Positions 1,257 through 12,329 of a DNA stretch of 64,000 nt are shown in pieces. The position numbers were made by a program, and so were the translations under genes. The stretch's first letter is position 1, and each line of letters opens with the position of its first letter. The notes beneath the pieces are model-generated. The model did not search any database and was not told the DNA's origin. It was given only the letters and a program-made list of their open reading frames with translations. This DNA comes from Escherichia coli. GTDB taxonomy: Bacteria > Pseudomonadota > Gammaproteobacteria > Enterobacterales > Enterobacteriaceae. Location of the stretch: assembly GCF_003334765.1 (NCBI RefSeq), contig NZ_QOWT01000008.1; one strand, given 5' to 3'.

Positions 1257-4200
1257 TTATTCCGGGCGCGGCTTCAGCGGGAAGCGGCGGCGCACCAGCA
1301 CAAAGAACAGCGGCACGAAGTAAATAGCCAGAATAGTGGCCGAAATCATCCCGCCCATTACGCCAGTACCCACCGCATGCTGACCACCGGAACCGGCACC
1401 CGTGCTGGTTGCCATTGGCAATACGCCGAAGATAAATGCCAGCGAGGTCATCAGAATCGGGCGTAAACGCTGACGGCAGGCGTGGAGCGTCGCTTCAAAC
1501 AGGTCGTGGCCTTTTTGGTTCATCTCGTTAGCAAACTCGACGATCAGGATGGCGTTTTTCGCCGATAAACCAATGACCGTTAACAGGCCCACCTGGAAGT
1601 AAACGTCGTTTTCCAGCCCGCGCATCCAGGTTGCCAGCAGCGCGCCGATTACCCCCAGCGGCACGACCAGCATTACCGAGAACGGCACCGACCAGCTTTC
1701 ATACAACGCAGCCAGACACAGGAATACCACCAGCAAGGAAATGGCGTACAGCGCCGGAGCCTGCGCGCCGGAAAGCCGCTCCTGATACGACATCGCCGTC
1801 CACTCCAGACCAAAGCCGTTTGGCAGCTGCTTCACTAACGATTCCATAATATCCATCGCCGTACCGGTACTGACCCCCGGTGCGGCTTCCCCAACAATCT
1901 CAACCGCAGAATAACCGTTATAGCGTTCCAGACGCGGCGAGCCTGTTTCCCAGCGTGAGGTCGCGAAAGCAGAGAAGGGCACCATGCCGCCATCTTTATT
2001 TCGGACATACCAGAGATTGATGTCATCTGGCAGCATGCGATACGGCGCAGCTGCCTGCACATAGACTTTCTTCACGCGACCGCGATCCATAAAGTCATTC
2101 ACATAGCTCGAACCCCAGGCGGTTTGCAGTGTGTCGTTAATATCGTCGATAGCAACGCCCAGCGCCTGAGCTTTACGCTGGTCGATATCAATCTGCAACT
2201 GCGGACTGTCGTCGAGGCCGTTATGGCGCACACGGGTTAGCTCCGGGTTTTCCGCCGCCAGCGCCAGCAACTGATTACTTGCTGCCATCAGCGCATCGTG
2301 ACCCGCTCCAGCGTGGTCCTGCAACTCCATATCAAAACCTGCAGAACTACCAAGACCGCTAATTGCTGGCGGGCTGCTGGCGATAACGCGAGCTTCTTTA
2401 ATTTGGTTAAACGCCTTCGTTGCACGCTCGATAATGGCAAACGAGGTGCCGGTCTTACTGTCGCGTTCGCTCCAGTCTTTCAGGCGGATAAACATTCGCG
2501 CCACGTTTTGCCCGTTACCCCCAGGGCCAGAACCAACGGTGGCAAACACCGACATGATGTTGTCTTTTTCATGGGTGAAGTAGTATTTCTCGATTTGCTC
2601 AACGACTTTCAGGGTCTGTTGTTGCGTTGAACCGCTGGGCAACTGTACCGAGGTAGTAAACATGCCACGGTCTTCCAGCGGTAAGAACGACGTCGGCAAA
2701 CGCAGGAACAGGAACACCATGCCGCCAAGCAGCAGGACATAAATCACAATCCAGCGCAGGCTACGGTGGAGAATTTTCGCCACCCCTTTTTCGTAGCGTT
2801 CGGCGTTGCGGTTAAACATCTGGTTAAACCAGGCAAAAAAGCCTTTTTGCCCATGATGCTCACCTTTTTTCAGTGGCTTAAGTAGTGTGGCACACAGAGC
2901 CGGAGTGAGGATCATCGCTACCAGTACTGACAGCACCATCGCCGCAACAATGGTAATAGAGAACTGGCGATAGATGGCACCGGTGGTGCCGCCGAAGAAG
3001 GCCATTGGTACAAATACCGCCGAAAGAACCATCGCAATCCCGACCAGTGCCCCCTGGATCTGCCCCATCGATTTACGTGTGGCTTCGCGAGGAGTGAGTC
3101 CTTCCTCACTCATAATACGTTCGACGTTTTCCACCACCACGATGGCGTCATCCACCAGCAGACCGATCGCCAGCACCATCGCGAACATGGTTAAGGTGTT
3201 GACGCTGTAACCGAAGGCGTAAAGTACGGAGAAGGTTCCCATCAACACCACCGGCACGGCGATAGTGGGTATCAGCGTGGCGCGGAAGTTTTGCAGGAAC
3301 AGATACATAACGAGGAAAACCAGAGCGATAGCTTCCAGCAGCGTTTTCACCACGTCTTCAATGGAGGCTTTAACAAACGAGGTGGTTTCATACGCCACCT
3401 TGTATTCCAGTCCATGCGGGAAATACTGCGCCAGCTCGTCGAGACGATTGAGCACCAGCTCCGCTGTCGCCATTTCGTTAGCGCCGGAGGCCAGTTTTAC
3501 CCCCAGCCCGGAGGCTGGCTTACCATTGAAGCGGCTAAGATAATCGTATTTCTCCGCCCCCATTTCGACGGTGGCGACATCGCCCAGCCTTACCTCTGAG
3601 CCGTCCTGATTGACCCGCAAGGTGATATCGCGGAACTGTTCTGGTGTTTGCAGCAGTGACTGGGCGTTAATGGTGGCGTTGAGCGCCTGCTTATCGACGG
3701 AAGGTGTACCACCAAGTTGCCCAACCGCAATCTGCGCGTTCTGTGACTCAATGGCATCAGTGACATCTTTAGCCGTCATCTGGAAACTGTTGAGTTTCGC
3801 CGGGTCCAGCCAGATACGCATGGAATATTGCGAACCATAGGCATCGATATCCCCGACGCCATTCACGCGGCTTAACGGGTCCTGAATATTACTGGCAACA
3901 TAATCAGCAATATCCTGTTTATCCATCGAACCATCGGTAGAGACGAAGGCAATGGTCAGAATGTTGGTATCGCCGGTTTTACGCACCGTCACGCCCTGAT
4001 TTTGCACCGCCTGCGGTAACTTTCGCATGGCTGATTGCAGCTGGTTTTGTACTTGCTGCACGGCTTCGTCCGGATCGGTGCCTGCTTTAAAACTTAAAGT
4101 GACAGATGCCTGACCGGTGCCACTGCTCTGAGATGACATATACATGAGATTATCGAGGCCGGTCATATTTTGCTCGATAACCTGGGTCACGGTGTTTTCC

Positions 4201-4533: not shown

Positions 4534-6234
4534 TTACATTAACTGACTTTCCTCACCCTCCGCAGAGCGAAAGCTAATACTCACTAACGTGCCGCCGCCG
4601 GAAGGTTGTGAAAAAGTCAGCGTCCCACCTAGCCGTTCCGCGCGTTCGCGCATGATATTCAGACCATAATGACCTTCGGGTTCTTTCGGTTCACCGATAC
4701 CAATCCCGTTATCACGGATATAAACCGTGTGATTGCCGTCCGGCGCGGTGACGCAACTGACGGCGATTTCGCTGGCGTTGGCGTGCTTCATCGCATTCAG
4801 CACCGCTTCGCGAATAATTTGCAACAAATGCACCTGCATTTGCGCATCCAGTGCCAGGGTTGGCAGACGGCAGTCGAGGGTCAGTTTGGCGCTGGTTTGA
4901 TTTTGTAACGTATCCAGCATTTCCCTCAATGCGGAGGGGAGATCCGCCTGCTGCAGCGTCAGGCGGAAAGTAGTCAACAGCTCGCGTAACTGCCGATAAG
5001 CATCATTCAACGCCTGGGAAAAATCGGCCATGATACTTTGTGCGGTGGCGTTATCTTCCGGTATCGAACGCTTCAGTAACGTCAACTGGATACGTAAGTA
5101 AGAAAGTACCTGAGCCAGCGAGTCGTGCAATTCGCGGGCGATGGTCGCACGTTCTTCCATCAACAATAATTGCTGAAAATGCTTCTGCGCCTGATTAAAG
5201 TACAAACCGCGTCCCAGCATCGACGAAACGCTGTTAAGCAGCGGTTCTGATGATGAAACGTGACTATTTTGCCAGTGCAGTTCGCCGTAAACCGTCTCTT
5301 GCATTGTCACCGGTAAAATCTGCATCGGCAATTCCGGGTTTGGTTGCCCTTCGCTAATCCGCCAGTTTTCACCGACATTTAACTCCAGATATTCAGCCGC
5401 TTCATTGTCGCGAACAATCTGCAAAATATGGCGGAAACAATGCACATCAATCTGGCTAGTGTTCAGCGCCTGCGAACACTGATACAACACCTCCAGACGA
5501 CGCTTGGCCTCGTGGAGATCGCGGGTCTTTTCTTCTACTGACGCTTCCAGCGAACGGTACAATTTATGCAGCTCGCTCGACATCTGGTTAAAGGTTTTTG
5601 CAAGCAGACCAAGCTCATTCGGCAGGTTGGTATCCAGCGGCGGCGAGTCGAACTGCCCGTGTTCAATACGCTGACTGGCGGTAACCAGCTGATTCAGCGG
5701 GGCAACCACCTGATGGCGTATGCGGCGCAAAGTAAAAAAGACCAGCGTGAAAATACCGATGCCGCCAGCCAGGGAAATCGCCACCACCAGCAGCATTTTG
5801 CGTTCAGCGTAGTGCTGTAAAGCCAGTACGAACAGGTCTATCTGATTAACATAATTATTAATATTGGCCTGATACCACGGCAAATCGCCCTTGCTGAGCC
5901 GATTATTCATCTCCAGCCAGTTGGCATTCAGATGCGCATAGCGAGTTTTTACTGCTTCTGGCACATACCAGACGTTGAGGTTGGTTAATACCGGTGAATG
6001 CAGTGCCTGCTGAAATAACTGGCGATGTGCATTGAGTTGTGGACTGCCACTTTGCAAGTCGTAGCCCAGGCGGTAACTCTGCATACGCAGCGATCCGGCA
6101 ATATTGATAGCCTCAGCGTCGCGCAAACTGCTCGCCAGAGTTAGCAGAGCGATACCCGTGGAAAGAATCGACAGCAGCACAATGTAAAAAAAGGCCCGGG
6201 CCAGACTGGCCGAGACGGGTCGTTTAACAATCAC
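4534..6234 (-). CDS. narQ: nitrate/nitrite sensor histidine kinase NarQ
   Basis: ORF-track protein minus 5 N-terminal residues; inferred GTG start at 6234 gives 566 aa beginning (M)IVKRPVSASLARAFF; C-terminal HATPase domain. Confidence 0.92.
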   Translation of the reverse strand: MIVKRPVSASLARAFFYIVLLSILSTGIALLTLASSLRDAEAINIAGSLRMQSYRLGYDLQSGSPQLNAHRQLFQQALHSPVLTNLNVWYVPEAVKTRYAHLNANWLEMNNRLSKGDLPWYQANINNYVNQIDLFVLALQHYAERKMLLVVAISLAGGIGIFTLVFFTLRRIRHQVVAPLNQLVTASQRIEHGQFDSPPLDTNLPNELGLLAKTFNQMSSELHKLYRSLEASVEEKTRDLHEAKRRLEVLYQCSQALNTSQIDVHCFRHILQIVRDNEAAEYLELNVGENWRISEGQPNPELPMQILPVTMQETVYGELHWQNSHVSSSEPLLNSVSSMLGRGLYFNQAQKHFQQLLLMEERATIARELHDSLAQVLSYLRIQLTLLKRSIPEDNATAQSIMADFSQALNDAYRQLRELLTTFRLTLQQADLPSALREMLDTLQNQTSAKLTLDCRLPTLALDAQMQVHLLQIIREAVLNAMKHANASEIAVSCVTAPDGNHTVYIRDNGIGIGEPKEPEGHYGLNIMRERAERLGGTLTFSQPSGGGTLVSISFRSAEGEESQLM

Positions 6235-6439: not shown

Positions 6440-8419
6440 ATGAATCGTTTTATTATGGCCAACAGTCAGCAATGTCTGGGTTGTCATGCTTGTGAAATCG
6501 CCTGTGTCATGGCTCACAATGATGAGCAACATGTCCTGAGCCAACACCATTTTCATCCCCGAATTACGGTTATCAAACATCAACAGCAACGTAGTGCAGT
6601 GACCTGTCACCATTGTGAAGATGCGCCCTGCGCCCGTAGCTGCCCTAATGGCGCAATCAGCCACGTTGATGACAGCATTCAGGTCAATCAGCAAAAGTGT
6701 ATTGGCTGTAAATCCTGCGTGGTGGCCTGTCCTTTTGGTACGATGCAAATCGTCCTGACACCCGTCGCGGCAGGAAAAGTAAAAGCCACGGCGCATAAAT
6801 GCGACCTTTGTGCGGGGCGCGAAAACGGTCCTGCCTGTGTTGAGAATTGCCCGGCGGACGCGCTGCAACTGGTCACTGACGTCGCACTCTCCGGCATGGC
6901 GAAATCCCGCCGCTTGCGCACCGCGCGTCAGGAACATCAACCGTGGCATGCCAGTACCGCGGCGCAAGAAATGCCGGTAATGAGTAAAGTCGAACAAATG
7001 CAGGCAACGCCCGCGCGTGGCGAGCCGGATAAACTGGCGATTGAAGCGCGCAAAACCGGTTTTGATGAAATTTATCTGCCATTTCGCGCCGACCAGGCAC
7101 AACGGGAAGCCTCGCGCTGCCTTAAGTGCGGCGAGCACAGCGTTTGTGAATGGACCTGCCCGCTGCATAACCATATACCGCAGTGGATTGAACTGGTGAA
7201 AGCCGGAAACATCGACGCCGCCGTCGAGCTTTCTCACCAGACCAACACCCTGCCGGAAATTACCGGACGCGTTTGTCCGCAAGACCGTTTGTGTGAAGGT
7301 GCCTGTACTATTCGCGATGAGCACGGCGCGGTAACTATCGGCAACATTGAACGCTACATTTCAGATCAGGCGTTGGCGAAAGGTTGGCGTCCTGACTTAA
7401 GCCATGTCACCAAAGTGGACAAGCGGGTGGCGATTATCGGTGCAGGTCCGGCAGGGCTGGCCTGTGCGGATGTTCTGACCCGCAATGGCGTGGGGGTGAC
7501 GGTGTACGATCGCCATCCAGAAATCGGTGGCTTGCTCACTTTCGGCATTCCTTCTTTCAAACTGGATAAATCCCTGCTGGCACGCCGTCGGGAAATCTTC
7601 AGCGCGATGGGGATTCACTTCGAACTCAATTGTGAAGTGGGTAAAGATGTCTCTTTGGATTCGCTTTTGGAACAATACGACGCGGTCTTCGTTGGCGTAG
7701 GCACTTACCGTTCCATGAAAGCGGGTTTACCCAATGAAGATGCGCCGGGCGTTTATGACGCGCTGCCGTTCCTCATTGCCAACACTAAACAGGTGATGGG
7801 GCTCGAAGAGCTACCGGAAGAGCCGTTTATCAATACCGCCGGACTTAACGTCGTGGTACTGGGCGGCGGCGACACCGCGATGGACTGTGTGCGTACCGCA
7901 CTGCGCCACGGCGCGAGTAACGTCACCTGCGCTTATCGTCGTGATGAAGCTAACATGCCAGGCTCGAAGAAAGAAGTGAAGAACGCCCGCGAAGAGGGGG
8001 CCAACTTCGAATTTAACGTCCAGCCGGTGGCGCTTGAGCTGAATGAACAAGGTCACGTCTGCGGGATTCGTTTCCTGCGCACGCGTCTTGGAGAGCCGGA
8101 TGCCCAGGGGCGTCGGCGTCCAGTGCCGGTGGAAGGCAGTGAATTTGTCATGCCAGCCGACGCGGTGATTATGGCGTTTGGCTTCAATCCGCACGGGATG
8201 CCGTGGCTGGAGTCGCACGGTGTAACGGTAGACAAATGGGGCCGCATCATCGCGGATGTGGAAAGCCAGTACCGTTACCAGACCACCAATCCGAAAATCT
8301 TCGCTGGTGGTGACGCCGTGCGTGGTGCGGATCTGGTGGTTACCGCAATGGCAGAAGGACGTCATGCGGCACAGGGGATTATTGACTGGCTGGGGGTAAA
8401 ATCAGTCAAATCTCACTGA
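6440..8419 (+). CDS. aegA: Fe-S oxidoreductase AegA (ferredoxin-like N-terminus fused to GltD-like NAD(P)/FAD domain)
   Basis: 659 aa; four CxxCxxCxxxCP motifs and a VAIIGAGPAGLA dinucleotide-binding motif visible; AAGAAGG RBS before ATG 6440. Confidence 0.93.
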   Translation: MNRFIMANSQQCLGCHACEIACVMAHNDEQHVLSQHHFHPRITVIKHQQQRSAVTCHHCEDAPCARSCPNGAISHVDDSIQVNQQKCIGCKSCVVACPFGTMQIVLTPVAAGKVKATAHKCDLCAGRENGPACVENCPADALQLVTDVALSGMAKSRRLRTARQEHQPWHASTAAQEMPVMSKVEQMQATPARGEPDKLAIEARKTGFDEIYLPFRADQAQREASRCLKCGEHSVCEWTCPLHNHIPQWIELVKAGNIDAAVELSHQTNTLPEITGRVCPQDRLCEGACTIRDEHGAVTIGNIERYISDQALAKGWRPDLSHVTKVDKRVAIIGAGPAGLACADVLTRNGVGVTVYDRHPEIGGLLTFGIPSFKLDKSLLARRREIFSAMGIHFELNCEVGKDVSLDSLLEQYDAVFVGVGTYRSMKAGLPNEDAPGVYDALPFLIANTKQVMGLEELPEEPFINTAGLNVVVLGGGDTAMDCVRTALRHGASNVTCAYRRDEANMPGSKKEVKNAREEGANFEFNVQPVALELNEQGHVCGIRFLRTRLGEPDAQGRRRPVPVEGSEFVMPADAVIMAFGFNPHGMPWLESHGVTVDKWGRIIADVESQYRYQTTNPKIFAGGDAVRGADLVVTAMAEGRHAAQGIIDWLGVKSVKSH

Positions 8420-8486
8420 TAGCCTGCGCAGACAAACCCGACTTCACAGCGTAAGATAATTGTTCATTTCGCGCTGTGGAGTCGGT

Positions 8487-9062
8487 ATGACGCAACAAAT
8501 CACCCTCATTAAAGACAAAATTCTCTCCGATAACTATTTCACCCTGCACAACATTACTTACGATCTCACGCGCAAAGACGGCGAAGTTATCCGCCATAAA
8601 CGTGAAGTGTACGATCGCGGCAATGGTGCGACGATCCTCCTGTACAACACGAAGAAAAAGACCGTGGTTCTGATTCGTCAGTTCCGTGTCGCTACCTGGG
8701 TTAATGGCAATGAAAGCGGGCAGCTGATTGAAAGCTGCGCCGGGCTGCTGGATAACGACGAACCGGAAGTGTGTATTCGCAAAGAAGCGATTGAAGAGAC
8801 GGGCTATGAAGTGGGTGAAGTGCGCAAATTATTTGAACTGTATATGTCGCCAGGCGGTGTGACTGAGCTAATCCACTTTTTTATCGCCGAATACAGTGAC
8901 AATCAGCGCGCTAACGCCGGTGGCGGTGTCGAAGATGAAGATATTGAAGTGCTCGAGCTGCCGTTCAGCCAGGCGCTGGAGATGATCAAAACCGGCGAGA
9001 TACGTGACGGTAAGACGGTGTTATTGCTTAACTATTTGCAAACGTCACATTTAATGGACTGA
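8487..9062 (+). CDS. nudK: Nudix hydrolase NudK (GDP-mannose pyrophosphatase)
   Basis: Internal start [11 protein letters not shown] gives 191 aa; ORF-track start 8460 is an upstream extension. Confidence 0.9.
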
Positions 9063-9187
9063 AAAATAACAATAATATTTCGTTGTTTATTATTGGCTCA
9101 ATCCGACAAATCCGATTGAGCCGCGCTACCTGCGCAACGAAGATACGACTTGTGCTGTTTGTTTGAACTTCTGGGGTCGTACCGTCC

Positions 9188-10231
9188 ATGCGCTATCGCA
9201 TTTTCCTTCTCTTTTTTTTCGCTTTGTTGCCGACGTCTTTGGTGTGGGCGGCACCAGCGCAACGGGCGTTTTCCGACTGGCAGGTCACCTGTAATAACCA
9301 AAATTTCTGCGTGGCGCGTAATACGGGCGATCATAATGGACTGGTGATGACCCTGAGCCGCAGCGCCGGGGCGCATACCGATGCCGTTTTACGTATTGAG
9401 CGCGGCGGATTGAAGTCGCCGGAGGCGTCAGAAGGGGAGATAGCGCCACGGCTGCTGTTAGATGGCGAGCCGTTGGCGTTAAGTGGTGACAAGTGGCGGA
9501 TTTCACCATGGTTATTAGTAACCGATGATACGGCAACCATCACCGCGTTTTTGCAGATGATTCAGGAAGGGAAGGCAATCACCTTACGCGATGGCGATCA
9601 GACCATTTCTCTGAGTGGCTTAAAAGCAGCGTTGTTGTTTATTGATGCTCAGCAAAAGCGCGTTGGCAGTGAAACCGCGTGGATCAAGAAAGGGGACGAA
9701 CCGCCGCTCAGCGTACCGCCCGCGCCTGCGCTGAAAGAGGTCGCGGTGGTTAACCCAACGCCGACGCCACTCTCACTCGAAGAACGCAACGATTTGCTGG
9801 ATTATGGAAACTGGCGGATGAATGGTCTGCGCTGCTCGCTTGATCCATTGCGTCGTGAGGTGAATGTCACTGCGCTGACTGATGATAAAGCGCTGATGAT
9901 GATTAGCTGTGAGGCAGGGGCCTATAACACCATTGATTTGGCATGGATTGTGTCGCGTAAAAAGCCACTAGCTTCGCGCCCGGTTCGGTTGCGTTTGCCG
10001 TTCAACAACGGTCAGGAGACGAATGAACTGGAACTGATGAACGCAACATTTGATGAGAAATCGCGTGAACTGGTGACCTTAGCGAAAGGGCGCGGATTAA
10101 GCGATTGTGGCATTCAGGCGCGCTGGCGCTTTGACGGTCAGCGTTTTCGCCTGGTGCGTTACGCCGCAGAACCCACCTGCGATAACTGGCATGGGCCAGA
10201 CGCCTGGCCCACGTTGTGGATCACCCGTTAA
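9188..10231 (+). CDS. ypfG: uncharacterised exported protein YpfG (DUF1176-type)
   Basis: 347 aa with N-terminal signal peptide MRYRIFLLFFFALLPTSLVWAAP. Confidence 0.85.
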   Translation: MRYRIFLLFFFALLPTSLVWAAPAQRAFSDWQVTCNNQNFCVARNTGDHNGLVMTLSRSAGAHTDAVLRIERGGLKSPEASEGEIAPRLLLDGEPLALSGDKWRISPWLLVTDDTATITAFLQMIQEGKAITLRDGDQTISLSGLKAALLFIDAQQKRVGSETAWIKKGDEPPLSVPPAPALKEVAVVNPTPTPLSLEERNDLLDYGNWRMNGLRCSLDPLRREVNVTALTDDKALMMISCEAGAYNTIDLAWIVSRKKPLASRPVRLRLPFNNGQETNELELMNATFDEKSRELVTLAKGRGLSDCGIQARWRFDGQRFRLVRYAAEPTCDNWHGPDAWPTLWITR

Positions 10232-10235
10232 ACAA

Positions 10236-10325
10236 AATGGCGGGACATGTAGGCCGGATAAGACGCTGTAGGCCGGATAAGACGCGTCAGCGTCGCATCC
10301 GGCAATCAGCATCCGGCAATCACCA
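10236..10325. repeat. REP cluster (tandem GTAGGCCGGATAAGACGC units plus GCATCCGGCAATC units)
   Basis: Imperfect palindromic REP motifs read directly between convergent ypfG and tktB. Confidence 0.7.
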
Positions 10326-12329
10326 TCAGGCACCTTTCACTCCCAGCACCTTATGCGCTTTTGCCACAATATTCTCGGCGGTAAAGCCAAAGAACGGGAA
10401 CAGCTTATCCGCCGGAGCAGATTCCCCGTAACCCGTCATCCCGACAATTGCCCCTTTCAGACCAACATACTTGTACCAGTAATCGGCAATACCTGCTTCC
10501 ACCGCCACGCGAGCCGCAACGTTAGAAGGCAACACCGACTCCCGATATTCCTCATCCTGGGCGTCGAAAATATCGGTCGAGGGCAGGGAAACTACGCGTA
10601 CATTGCGACCTTCTCCTGCTAATTTCTCTGCCGCTTGCAGGGTAATTTCCATCTCTGAACCGGTGGCAATCAGAATAATATCTGGCTTACCGCCGCTGTC
10701 TTTCAGCACATAACCGCCACGAGCAATCTCTTTAACCTGATCCGGCGTACGTTCCACCTGGGCCAGATTCTGCCTTGAGAGGATCAGTGCCGTCGGTCCG
10801 TTGTGGCGCTCAACCGCCAGCTTCCAGCCCACCGCCGCTTCCACCTGATCGCACGGTCGCCAGGTGCTGAAATTTGGCGTTAAGCGCAGGCTGGCCAGTT
10901 GCTCAACAGCCTGGTGCGTCGGACCATCTTCGCCCAGGCCAATTGAGTCGTGGGTATAAACCATAATCTGCCGCGCTTTCATCAGTGCCGCCATCCGCGC
11001 GGCGTTACGGGCGTATTCAACAAACATCAGGAACGTCGCGGTATACGGCACAAAGCCGCCGTGGTGCGCGATGCCGTTGGCGATAGCGGTCATGCCAAAT
11101 TCACGCACCCCGTAGTGAATGTAGTTGCCCGCTGGATCTTCCTTCAGCGAAACAGAACCTTTCCAGATGGTCAGGTTGCTGGGAGCCAGATCCGCCGAAC
11201 CGCCGAGCAACTCAGGCAGCATCGGCCCGTAAGCGTTAAGCGTATTTTGCGAAGCCTTACGGGTAGCGATTTTCGCCGGATTTGCCTGTAACTCATTGAT
11301 ATATTTCTGAGTCGTTTTCTCCCAGTCCTTCGGTAAACCACCGCTCATCCGTCGGGTAAACTCTTCTGCCAGTTGCGGATGAGCCTTTTTATAGGCGGCA
11401 AACTTCTCATTCCAGCTCTGCTGCGCTTTTTCGCCTTTTTCACGGGCATCCCAGGCGTGATAAATCTCTTTAGGGATCTCAAATGGCGGATGGTGCCAGC
11501 CCAGTTTTTGCCGTGCCAGCGCCACTTCTTCTTCCCCCAGTGGTGCGCCGTGCGCCTCTTCCTTACCTGCTTTATTCGGCGAACCAAAGCCAATCACCGT
11601 ACGGCAGATAATCAGCGACGGCTTATCTTTCACGCTTTGCGCTTCAAGGATCGCTTCCTTCACCGCCTGCGGATCGTGACCGTCGATTTCATGGATCACA
11701 TGCCAGTGATAGGCTTCAAAACGTTTTGCCGTATCGTCGGTAAACCAGCCTTCTGTTTCACCGTCGATGGAAATACCGTTGTGATCGTAAAAACCAATCA
11801 GCTTGCCCAGTCCCAGCGTGCCTGCCAGCGAACAGACTTCGTGGGAAATACCTTCCATCAGGCAGCCGTCGCCCATAAACACATAGGTGAAGTGATCGAC
11901 GATCTCATGGTCTGGCTGGTTAAACTGCGCCGCCAGTGTACGCTCTGCTATCGCCAGCCCGACGGCGTTCGCCAAACCTTGTCCAAGCGGGCCGGTGGTG
12001 GTTTCAACGCCTGGCGTATAGCCAATCTCCGGGTGGCCTGGGGTTTTCGAATGCAACTGACGGAAGTTCTTCAGTTCTTCCAGCGGCAGGTCGTAACCGG
12101 TCAGATGTAGCAAACTGTAGAGCAGCATCGACGCGTGACCGTTGGAAAGAATAAAGCGGTCGCGATCATACCAGGTTGGGTCGGTAGGGTTATGTTTAAG
12201 AAAATCGTTCCACAGCACTTCGGCAATATCAGCCATGCCCATCGGCGCGCCGGGATGACCAGAGTTGGCTTTTTGTACCGCATCCATACTGAGTGCGCGA
12301 ATCGCATTGGCAAGGTCTTTTCGGGACAT
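10326..12329 (-). CDS. tktB: transketolase 2
   Basis: Internal start [21 protein letters not shown] gives 667 aa; ORF-track start 12392 is an extension. Confidence 0.95.

Follow-up and report, generated by a model that had tools for sequence, protein, structure and literature searches.

The binding site of RcsB has been defined structurally and by EMSA as a 14-bp pseudo-palindrome, the RcsB box, with the consensus TN(G/A)GAN4TC(T/C)NA (PMC7913699). At the rprA promoter, the sequence of which we fetched from MG1655, the box TGAGACGAATCTGA is followed by the -35 hexamer TCGACG, 17 bp, the -10 hexamer TACTAT and, 6 nt further on, the annotated start. A box with a -35-like hexamer directly behind it likewise occurs at ivy (TTGGAAATATCTGA, then TTTGCA), at osmB p1 (TAAGATGATTCCTG, then GTTGAT) and at osmC/bdm (TAAGATTAGTCCTG, then GTTGAT), the boxes of osmB and osmC/bdm each scoring 7/8.

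Published expression data place ypfG near this group of genes. With a LolCDE inhibitor, ypfG was up 37.7- and 44.2-fold and was among the top induced genes, and the genes induced with it were osmB, ycfJ, bdm, wcaE, wza, wzb, ypeC, yaiY, ygaC, rcsA and ivy (PMC5105897). According to the authors, the Rcs phosphorelay accounts for the induction of osmB, rcsA, the colanic-acid genes and ivy; the Cpx and sigma-S responses are set off by LolCDE inhibition as well (PMC5105897). Disruption of rcsB in an O157:H7 isolate went along with a 4.58-fold decrease of ypfG, and ycfJ and ypeC changed by -25 and -24 (PMC5343319). In ExPEC, ypfG, ycfJ and ygaC were reported as complement-specific induced genes of unknown function (PMC4145685). 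Expression of ypfG correlates with both Rcs activation and loss of rcsB, a correlation that falls short of proof of direct regulation. Among the papers searched, we found none that describes an RcsB site or a promoter for ypfG.

A hairpin in the nudK-ypfG spacer

We analyzed a 64-kb stretch of E. coli K-12 sequence (the window). It matches MG1655-type genomes at 100% identity and runs in the reverse direction, so that subtracting a window position from 2591965 gives the MG1655 position. The genes around the spacer between nudK and ypfG, and the inverted repeat within it, are as follows.

6440-8419, plus strand: aegA
8487-9062, plus strand: nudK (GDP-mannose hydrolase), the upstream neighbour of the element, which is not tied to it
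9095-9122, no strand: inverted repeat or potential hairpin with 12-nt arms, one mismatch and a CAAA loop; its full-length form is specific to the Escherichia lineage
9188-10231, plus strand: ypfG (DUF1176, signal-peptide protein), the gene served by the element
from 10326, convergent with ypfG: tktB

A preliminary description of this DNA had placed a hairpin with an 8-bp stem at 9096-9123. The sequence GGCTCAATCCGACAAATCCGATTGAGCC is present, one base further to the left at 9095-9122, and the stem is real and longer than described, with 11 pairs. Its arms, GGCTCAATCCGA and TCCGATTGAGCC, are 12 nt each and 92% complementary, and they form nine contiguous pairs, a C9104·C9113 mismatch and two further pairs below the CAAA tetraloop (MFE of -15.7 kcal/mol in a 32-nt context of E. 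coli). The nudK stop codon occupies 9060-9062 and the ypfG start codon ATG is at 9188. The hairpin lies 3' of nudK, as described, starting 32 nt past the stop codon and ending 65 nt before the ATG. We also confirmed that it lacks a U-tract: neither strand has a T-run behind the stem, and a terminator scan gave no match at 9095-9130, so that it does not qualify as a classical terminator.

Hairpins with 12-nt arms, at most one mismatch and a loop of 3-12 nt are expected 1.4 times per 64 kb according to dinucleotide shuffles, which corresponds to ∼0.003 for a single 125-bp spacer, and the hairpin between nudK and ypfG exceeds chance. The window contains 11 distinct hairpins with 12-nt arms and at most one mismatch, versus 1.4 expected; further ones are located at positions 1217, 15883, 34584, 35551, 48788, 51743, 63657 and 63812, and these other hairpins may be terminators or REP elements. 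A REP-type palindromic element is present at 10271-10313 between the convergent genes ypfG and tktB and gave a partial match to naRNA4 in Rfam (37.5 bits, below the gathering threshold). A plus-strand 3' end listed for MG1655 2581778 (PMC7815308) is antisense to the 3' end of ypfG and may be the end of the tktB transcript.

The spacer hairpin itself occurs once in the window (one match when up to 3 mismatches were allowed) and once per genome in 5,426 complete E. coli genomes (median one place). It is invariant within E. coli. Reading of the alleles showed that the common variant of the 38-nt query, A9092G, falls just outside the hairpin, and two or more differences from the query were found in only 15 of the 5,426 genomes. 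Scanning 8400-10400 against Rfam at a permissive threshold returned nothing relevant, with a chance match of MIR171 to the palindrome (E = 6.9).

The sequence is conserved and the pairing is not

A scan for NudK in species-representative genomes yielded 80 loci from Enterobacteriaceae, 77 of which keep ypfG downstream of nudK, usually after a spacer of ∼125 bp. We aligned these 77 loci with the window in a gap-free anchored alignment of 78 sequences. The right arm and the loop of the hairpin are almost invariant in the 78 orthologous spacers, whereas the outer left arm (9095-9098) holds only about 0.5-0.8 bits. Covariation was absent on the stem of the preliminary description (score of 0.033 versus a shuffled mean of 0.045 in the 78 orthologues), and bases on that stem paired in 67.2% of the cells compared with 69.0% after shuffling of the partners. 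Of the six outer pairs, four are disrupted in 37-60 of the 68 distinct rows. Only Escherichia has an intact outer stem (7/7 or 6/7 pairs), Kluyvera coming close (5-6/7), and in most other genera the predicted MFE of the hairpin is weaker than about -4 kcal/mol. The features of a conserved structured RNA, pairing that is kept and compensatory changes, were not found across the 78 orthologues. Hence, because the arms are unequally conserved and do not covary, it is a one-sided sequence rather than the pairing that evolution conserves.

A box and a predicted promoter overlie the hairpin

The conserved block consists of TCCGAYAAATCYGA, TTGAG(C/T), an unconserved spacer of 17 bp and GAAGAT, in which we recognized the following features.

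9102-9115, plus strand: RcsB-box-like 14-mer TCCGACAAATCCGA, occupying the inner stem and the loop of the hairpin
9116-9121, plus strand: predicted -35 hexamer TTGAGC of the ypfG promoter, comprising most of the right arm of the hairpin
9139-9144, plus strand: predicted weak -10 hexamer GAAGAT, 17 bp downstream of the -35 hexamer
9148-9152, plus strand: predicted zone of the ypfG transcription start, near 9151, deduced from a distance of 6-8 nt past the -10 hexamer and by analogy with rprA

Within this block, G9105, A9106, A9109, T9111, C9112, A9115, T9116, T9117 and G9118 are identical in all 78 sequences, and T9102, A9119 and G9120 are each kept in 77 of them. The 14-mer TCCGACAAATCCGA fits the RcsB consensus at 7 of the 8 specified positions. 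The mismatch is at position 3 of the box (9104): the consensus calls for G or A here, 77/78 orthologues have C or T, and the strict pattern is not matched. Variation is found mainly at the degenerate sites of the consensus: at position 12 the orthologues have C or T only, at position 13 they have G or T, and in the box spacer all but one of the four sites vary. Every left half-site reads TC[C/T]GA, with a pyrimidine at the R position, and the opposite half is canonical on the other strand; this asymmetry persists even in YpfG homologues with 33-50% identity. Taken alone, the match to the RcsB box is statistically weak. A relaxed box followed by TTGA, a pattern that was defined post hoc, occurs once in the window versus 0.08 occurrences expected.

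The box at 9102-9115 directly adjoins the -35 hexamer, and this arrangement is kept in the 78 orthologues and in four distant homologues, the hexamers being predicted ones. At the fixed 17-bp register, 71 of the 78 orthologues have a hexamer of the form N-A-N-N-A-T, which is GAAGAT in 58, and by inspection the remaining seven fit a -10 hexamer at 16 or 18 bp. The A at position 2 and the T at position 6 are the best-kept bases of the -10 hexamer, and the sequence of the 17-bp spacer is not conserved (0.1-0.7 bits). Together, the -35 hexamer at 9116-9121, the -10 hexamer at 9139-9144 and a start near 9151 would make up the signature of a sigma-70 promoter.

We considered two other readings of this region and rejected both. 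A promoter scan also matched ATAACA (at 9066) as a -35 and TATTAT (9088-9093) as a -10 hexamer on the plus strand, in an AT-rich stretch that is not conserved between genera; this promoter would place the box at +2 to +15, a position for repression, whereas ypfG is activated when Rcs is on. The box can also be read as a direct repeat of TCCGA with a period of 9 bp, but a dyad fits the invariant GA...TC core better. Further downstream, a predicted helix pairs ∼9144-9151 with ∼9174-9182 and covers the GGGG Shine-Dalgarno sequence of ypfG. This helix could form only in RNA reading through from nudK and not in transcripts that start near 9151, in which case it would favour translation from the stress-induced promoter.

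The element belongs to ypfG

Loci in which nudK and ypfG are separated were informative about the gene to which the element belongs. Escherichia albertii keeps nudK and lacks ypfG, and the motif has decayed through a 9-bp deletion and substitutions. In the remnant spacer of this species (positions 3075-3260 of locus L005), the flanks TTGGCTCA and CCTGCGCAA are still recognizable, suggesting a recent loss of ypfG, and REP-like sequences follow. Both the motif and ypfG are absent from two loci of Pluralibacter gergoviae that keep nudK. In Klebsiella and Raoultella the spacer is short and the left half of the box lies inside the 3' coding end of nudK, with the motif intact; some of these species use the TGA of GATTGAG as the stop codon of nudK. 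E. coli strain G5 carries IS1A right after the nudK stop codon, and the box and the promoter are intact beside ypfG. The sequence GAAAAATA flanking this IS1A (positions 1030-1800 of locus L092) is duplicated.

Distant homologues of YpfG were obtained by an exhaustive search of representatives, as the search for homologous proteins gave close relatives only. A Mangrovibacter-type locus (50% identity) has TCCGACAAATCTTA, TTGAGC, 17 bp and GAAGAT. An Erwinia-type locus (47% identity) has TCCGATAAATCTGA, TTGAGG, 17 bp and CATGAT, with the motif ∼500 bp past nudK and 113 nt ahead of ypfG. Upstream of a homologue with 44% identity, whose upstream neighbours are not nudK, we found TCCGATAAATCTTA, TTGAGT, 18 bp and CAGGAT, and upstream of one with 33% identity TCCGAAGATTCTGA, TTGAGC, 17 bp and GATGAT. 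The left flank that forms the hairpin is missing in the Erwinia-type locus and at the 33%-identical homologue. The motif is not universal among DUF1176 genes, because two lineages lack it: it is missing upstream of ypfG in Rouxiella/Serratia sp. M24T3 and in a taxon with a gap of 15 nt between nudK and ypfG. Overall, these loci agree that the element belongs to ypfG and not to nudK, since the motif is lost together with ypfG, lies inside nudK in Klebsiella and is kept in other gene contexts.

A probable RcsB-activated promoter as the best explanation

We propose that an RcsB-activated promoter of ypfG, apparently unannotated, overlies the hairpin. We put the probability of this reading at about 0.68, with RcsB as the binder, both hexamers and the start deduced from the sequence. 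That the element acts as promoter or operator DNA of ypfG rather than as RNA is the safer part of the proposal and, to us, very probable. In this model, 9102-9115 would be a pseudo-palindromic operator of the RcsB-box type adjoining the -35 hexamer. Under envelope stress, phosphorylated RcsB would bind the box beside RNA polymerase. It would thereby activate a promoter of little strength by itself, and the periplasmic DUF1176 protein YpfG would be induced. The inner pairs of the hairpin would be a consequence of the dyad symmetry of the operator, and the outer pairs would have arisen where the unconstrained left flank of Escherichia happens to complement the constrained -35 region, by chance or by quasi-palindrome correction. 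The 78 orthologues gave no sign of selection on the extension of the outer stem as a structure. The hairpin shape looks incidental, a by-product rather than a functional unit, because the inner pairs would stem from the operator dyad and the outer pairs from an unconstrained flank. The preliminary description had suggested a protein-binding site separating nudK from ypfG; a protein site is the direction in which our analysis also points, as an operator and -35 element of ypfG and not as a separator.

Some features do not sit well with this model. Besides the pyrimidine at position 3, the CC at positions 2-3 and the AAA of the box spacer are more conserved than the N of the consensus predicts, which could reflect an auxiliary partner or a different regulator, and TTGAG is more invariant than a typical -35 hexamer. 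The same promoter might therefore be served by a heterodimer of RcsB with an auxiliary partner or by an unrelated dimeric factor, with an indirect correlation to Rcs. Besides the conserved CC and AAA, the constant TC[C/T]GA in place of TN[G/A]GA and the unmatched strict consensus speak for another regulator, as does the conservation of the symmetric flanks C9099 and A9101 within Enterobacteriaceae. However, the conservation of these flanks is lost in distant homologues, where the 14-mer and TTGAG persist. The invariant positions fit the RcsB consensus at 7/8, the right half is TCYGA as at rprA, ivy and ycfJ, and in each of two independent data sets the expression of ypfG moves with that of the core Rcs regulon that does not depend on RcsA. 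We consider a regulator other than RcsB alone unlikely.

The hairpin might instead act in nudK transcripts, as a 3' stabilizer after Rho-dependent termination or as a processing site for RNase III or RNase E, the latter also having been raised in the preliminary description. A stem of this stability so close behind the nudK stop codon, with no intrinsic terminator nearby, would suit such a role, as would its invariance within E. coli and the folding of the whole nudK-ypfG spacer, which is better than that of shuffled sequences (z = -3.96). The comparison between genera argues against it: the stem is absent in most of them, with neither covariation nor compensatory changes in the 78 orthologues; the conserved half is part of the nudK coding sequence in Klebsiella and Raoultella; and the motif disappears where ypfG is lost and nudK remains, and is found far from nudK or without it in distant taxa. 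The 3' end of the hairpin would correspond to MG1655 2582843 on the minus strand, and among the entries listed in one Term-seq table there is no 3' end between 2581778 (plus) and 2597799 (minus) (PMC7815308). This negative is weak because nudK is probably poorly expressed; nudK is not named among the entries of that table. We did not retain the RNase processing site, and regard any role of the hairpin in nudK RNA as improbable. The intergenic regions of E. coli are rich in palindromic repeats, and with a REP element nearby at 10271-10313 the hairpin could be taken for a dispersed REP- or BIME-like repeat, the remnant of a miniature mobile element or a functionless chance palindrome. A repeat is effectively refuted by copy number and conservation, as the hairpin occurs once in the window and once in each E. 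coli genome and has no match in Rfam, and neutrality is ruled out by the deep conservation of half of the hairpin sequence across families; we give this explanation next to no weight.

A promoter scan also matched the opposite strand of the hairpin region.

9072-9101, minus strand: speculative mirror promoter in which an RcsB-like box is followed by the -35 hexamer TTGAGC (9101-9096), an 18-bp spacer and the -10 hexamer TATTAT (9077-9072)

This match is created by the left arm specific to Escherichia and, by inspection, is seen only within this genus. It might make the RcsB-dependent promoter bidirectional, with a leftward RNA antisense to the 3' end of nudK, which we regard as a long shot. 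GDP-mannose, which NudK hydrolyses, is the precursor for the colanic-acid capsule, and this capsule is turned on by Rcs. If true, envelope-stress signalling would be linked to precursor supply through an antisense RNA that is induced by Rcs and reduces NudK.

The uncharacterized gene ypfG encodes a widely conserved periplasmic DUF1176 protein and is among the genes most induced by lipoprotein-trafficking stress. If the operator is truly of the RcsB type, ypfG would be a probable direct member of the core Rcs envelope-stress regulon, and its promoter would provide a compact reporter and aid annotation of the Rcs regulon. As a natural variant, the invariant pyrimidine at the R position could shed light on the way in which RcsB recognizes asymmetric sites. 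The locus also holds a caution for genome scanning, in that a strong hairpin behind a stop codon can be the shadow of the palindromic operator and -35 element of the next gene.

Comparison with known systems

The hairpin resembles a Rho-independent terminator or a protective stem-loop of a 3'-UTR in having a stem with G+C pairs shortly past a stop codon. Unlike in these elements, there is no U-tract, the pairing is not conserved and the conserved part is a sequence. A Fur box has been predicted upstream of ypfG (PMC4145685). This prediction concerns the same spacer and falls outside the hairpin, in the AT-rich sequence (9062-9094) that immediately precedes it. Counted simply, the best match to GATAATGATAATCATTATC is 11/19 at 9062-9083, a level reached 423 times in the window, in a stretch poorly conserved between genera. 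A second inverted repeat, CAATAATA/TATTATTG (9070-9077 and 9088-9095), lies in the AT-rich region 9062-9095 and overlaps the predicted Fur box, and the A9092G polymorphism, common in E. coli, falls within the same region, which could act in the manner of an UP element. The region upstream of ypeC in MG1655 contains GATGATACGG (about 5925-5965 of locus L084), which resembles the -10 region of ypfG, GAAGATACG; no box scoring at least 7/8 was found in the 200 nt upstream of ypeC.

The layout of the ypfG element is identical to that of rprA. Both have a 14-bp pseudo-palindrome with a GA-N4-TC core that ends in TCYGA, directly adjoins the -35 hexamer and is followed by a 17-bp spacer; in both, the box spans about -49 to -36 and the downstream gene is induced with the Rcs regulon. 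They differ in the left half of the box, which is TCCGA in ypfG and TGAGA in rprA, with a pyrimidine at position 3 in ypfG, and in the -10 hexamer, GAAGAT being much weaker than TACTAT; the start and the binding of RcsB are predicted for ypfG. The boxes of ivy, osmB and osmC/bdm score 7-8 of 8 and, as in ypfG, have a -35 hexamer of the TTGxxx type within 0-1 nt. These sites deviate from the consensus at outer positions of the box (e.g. the final A), whereas the ypfG site deviates at the R position, and ypfG shares with all of them its place in one list of genes induced by the LolCDE inhibitor.
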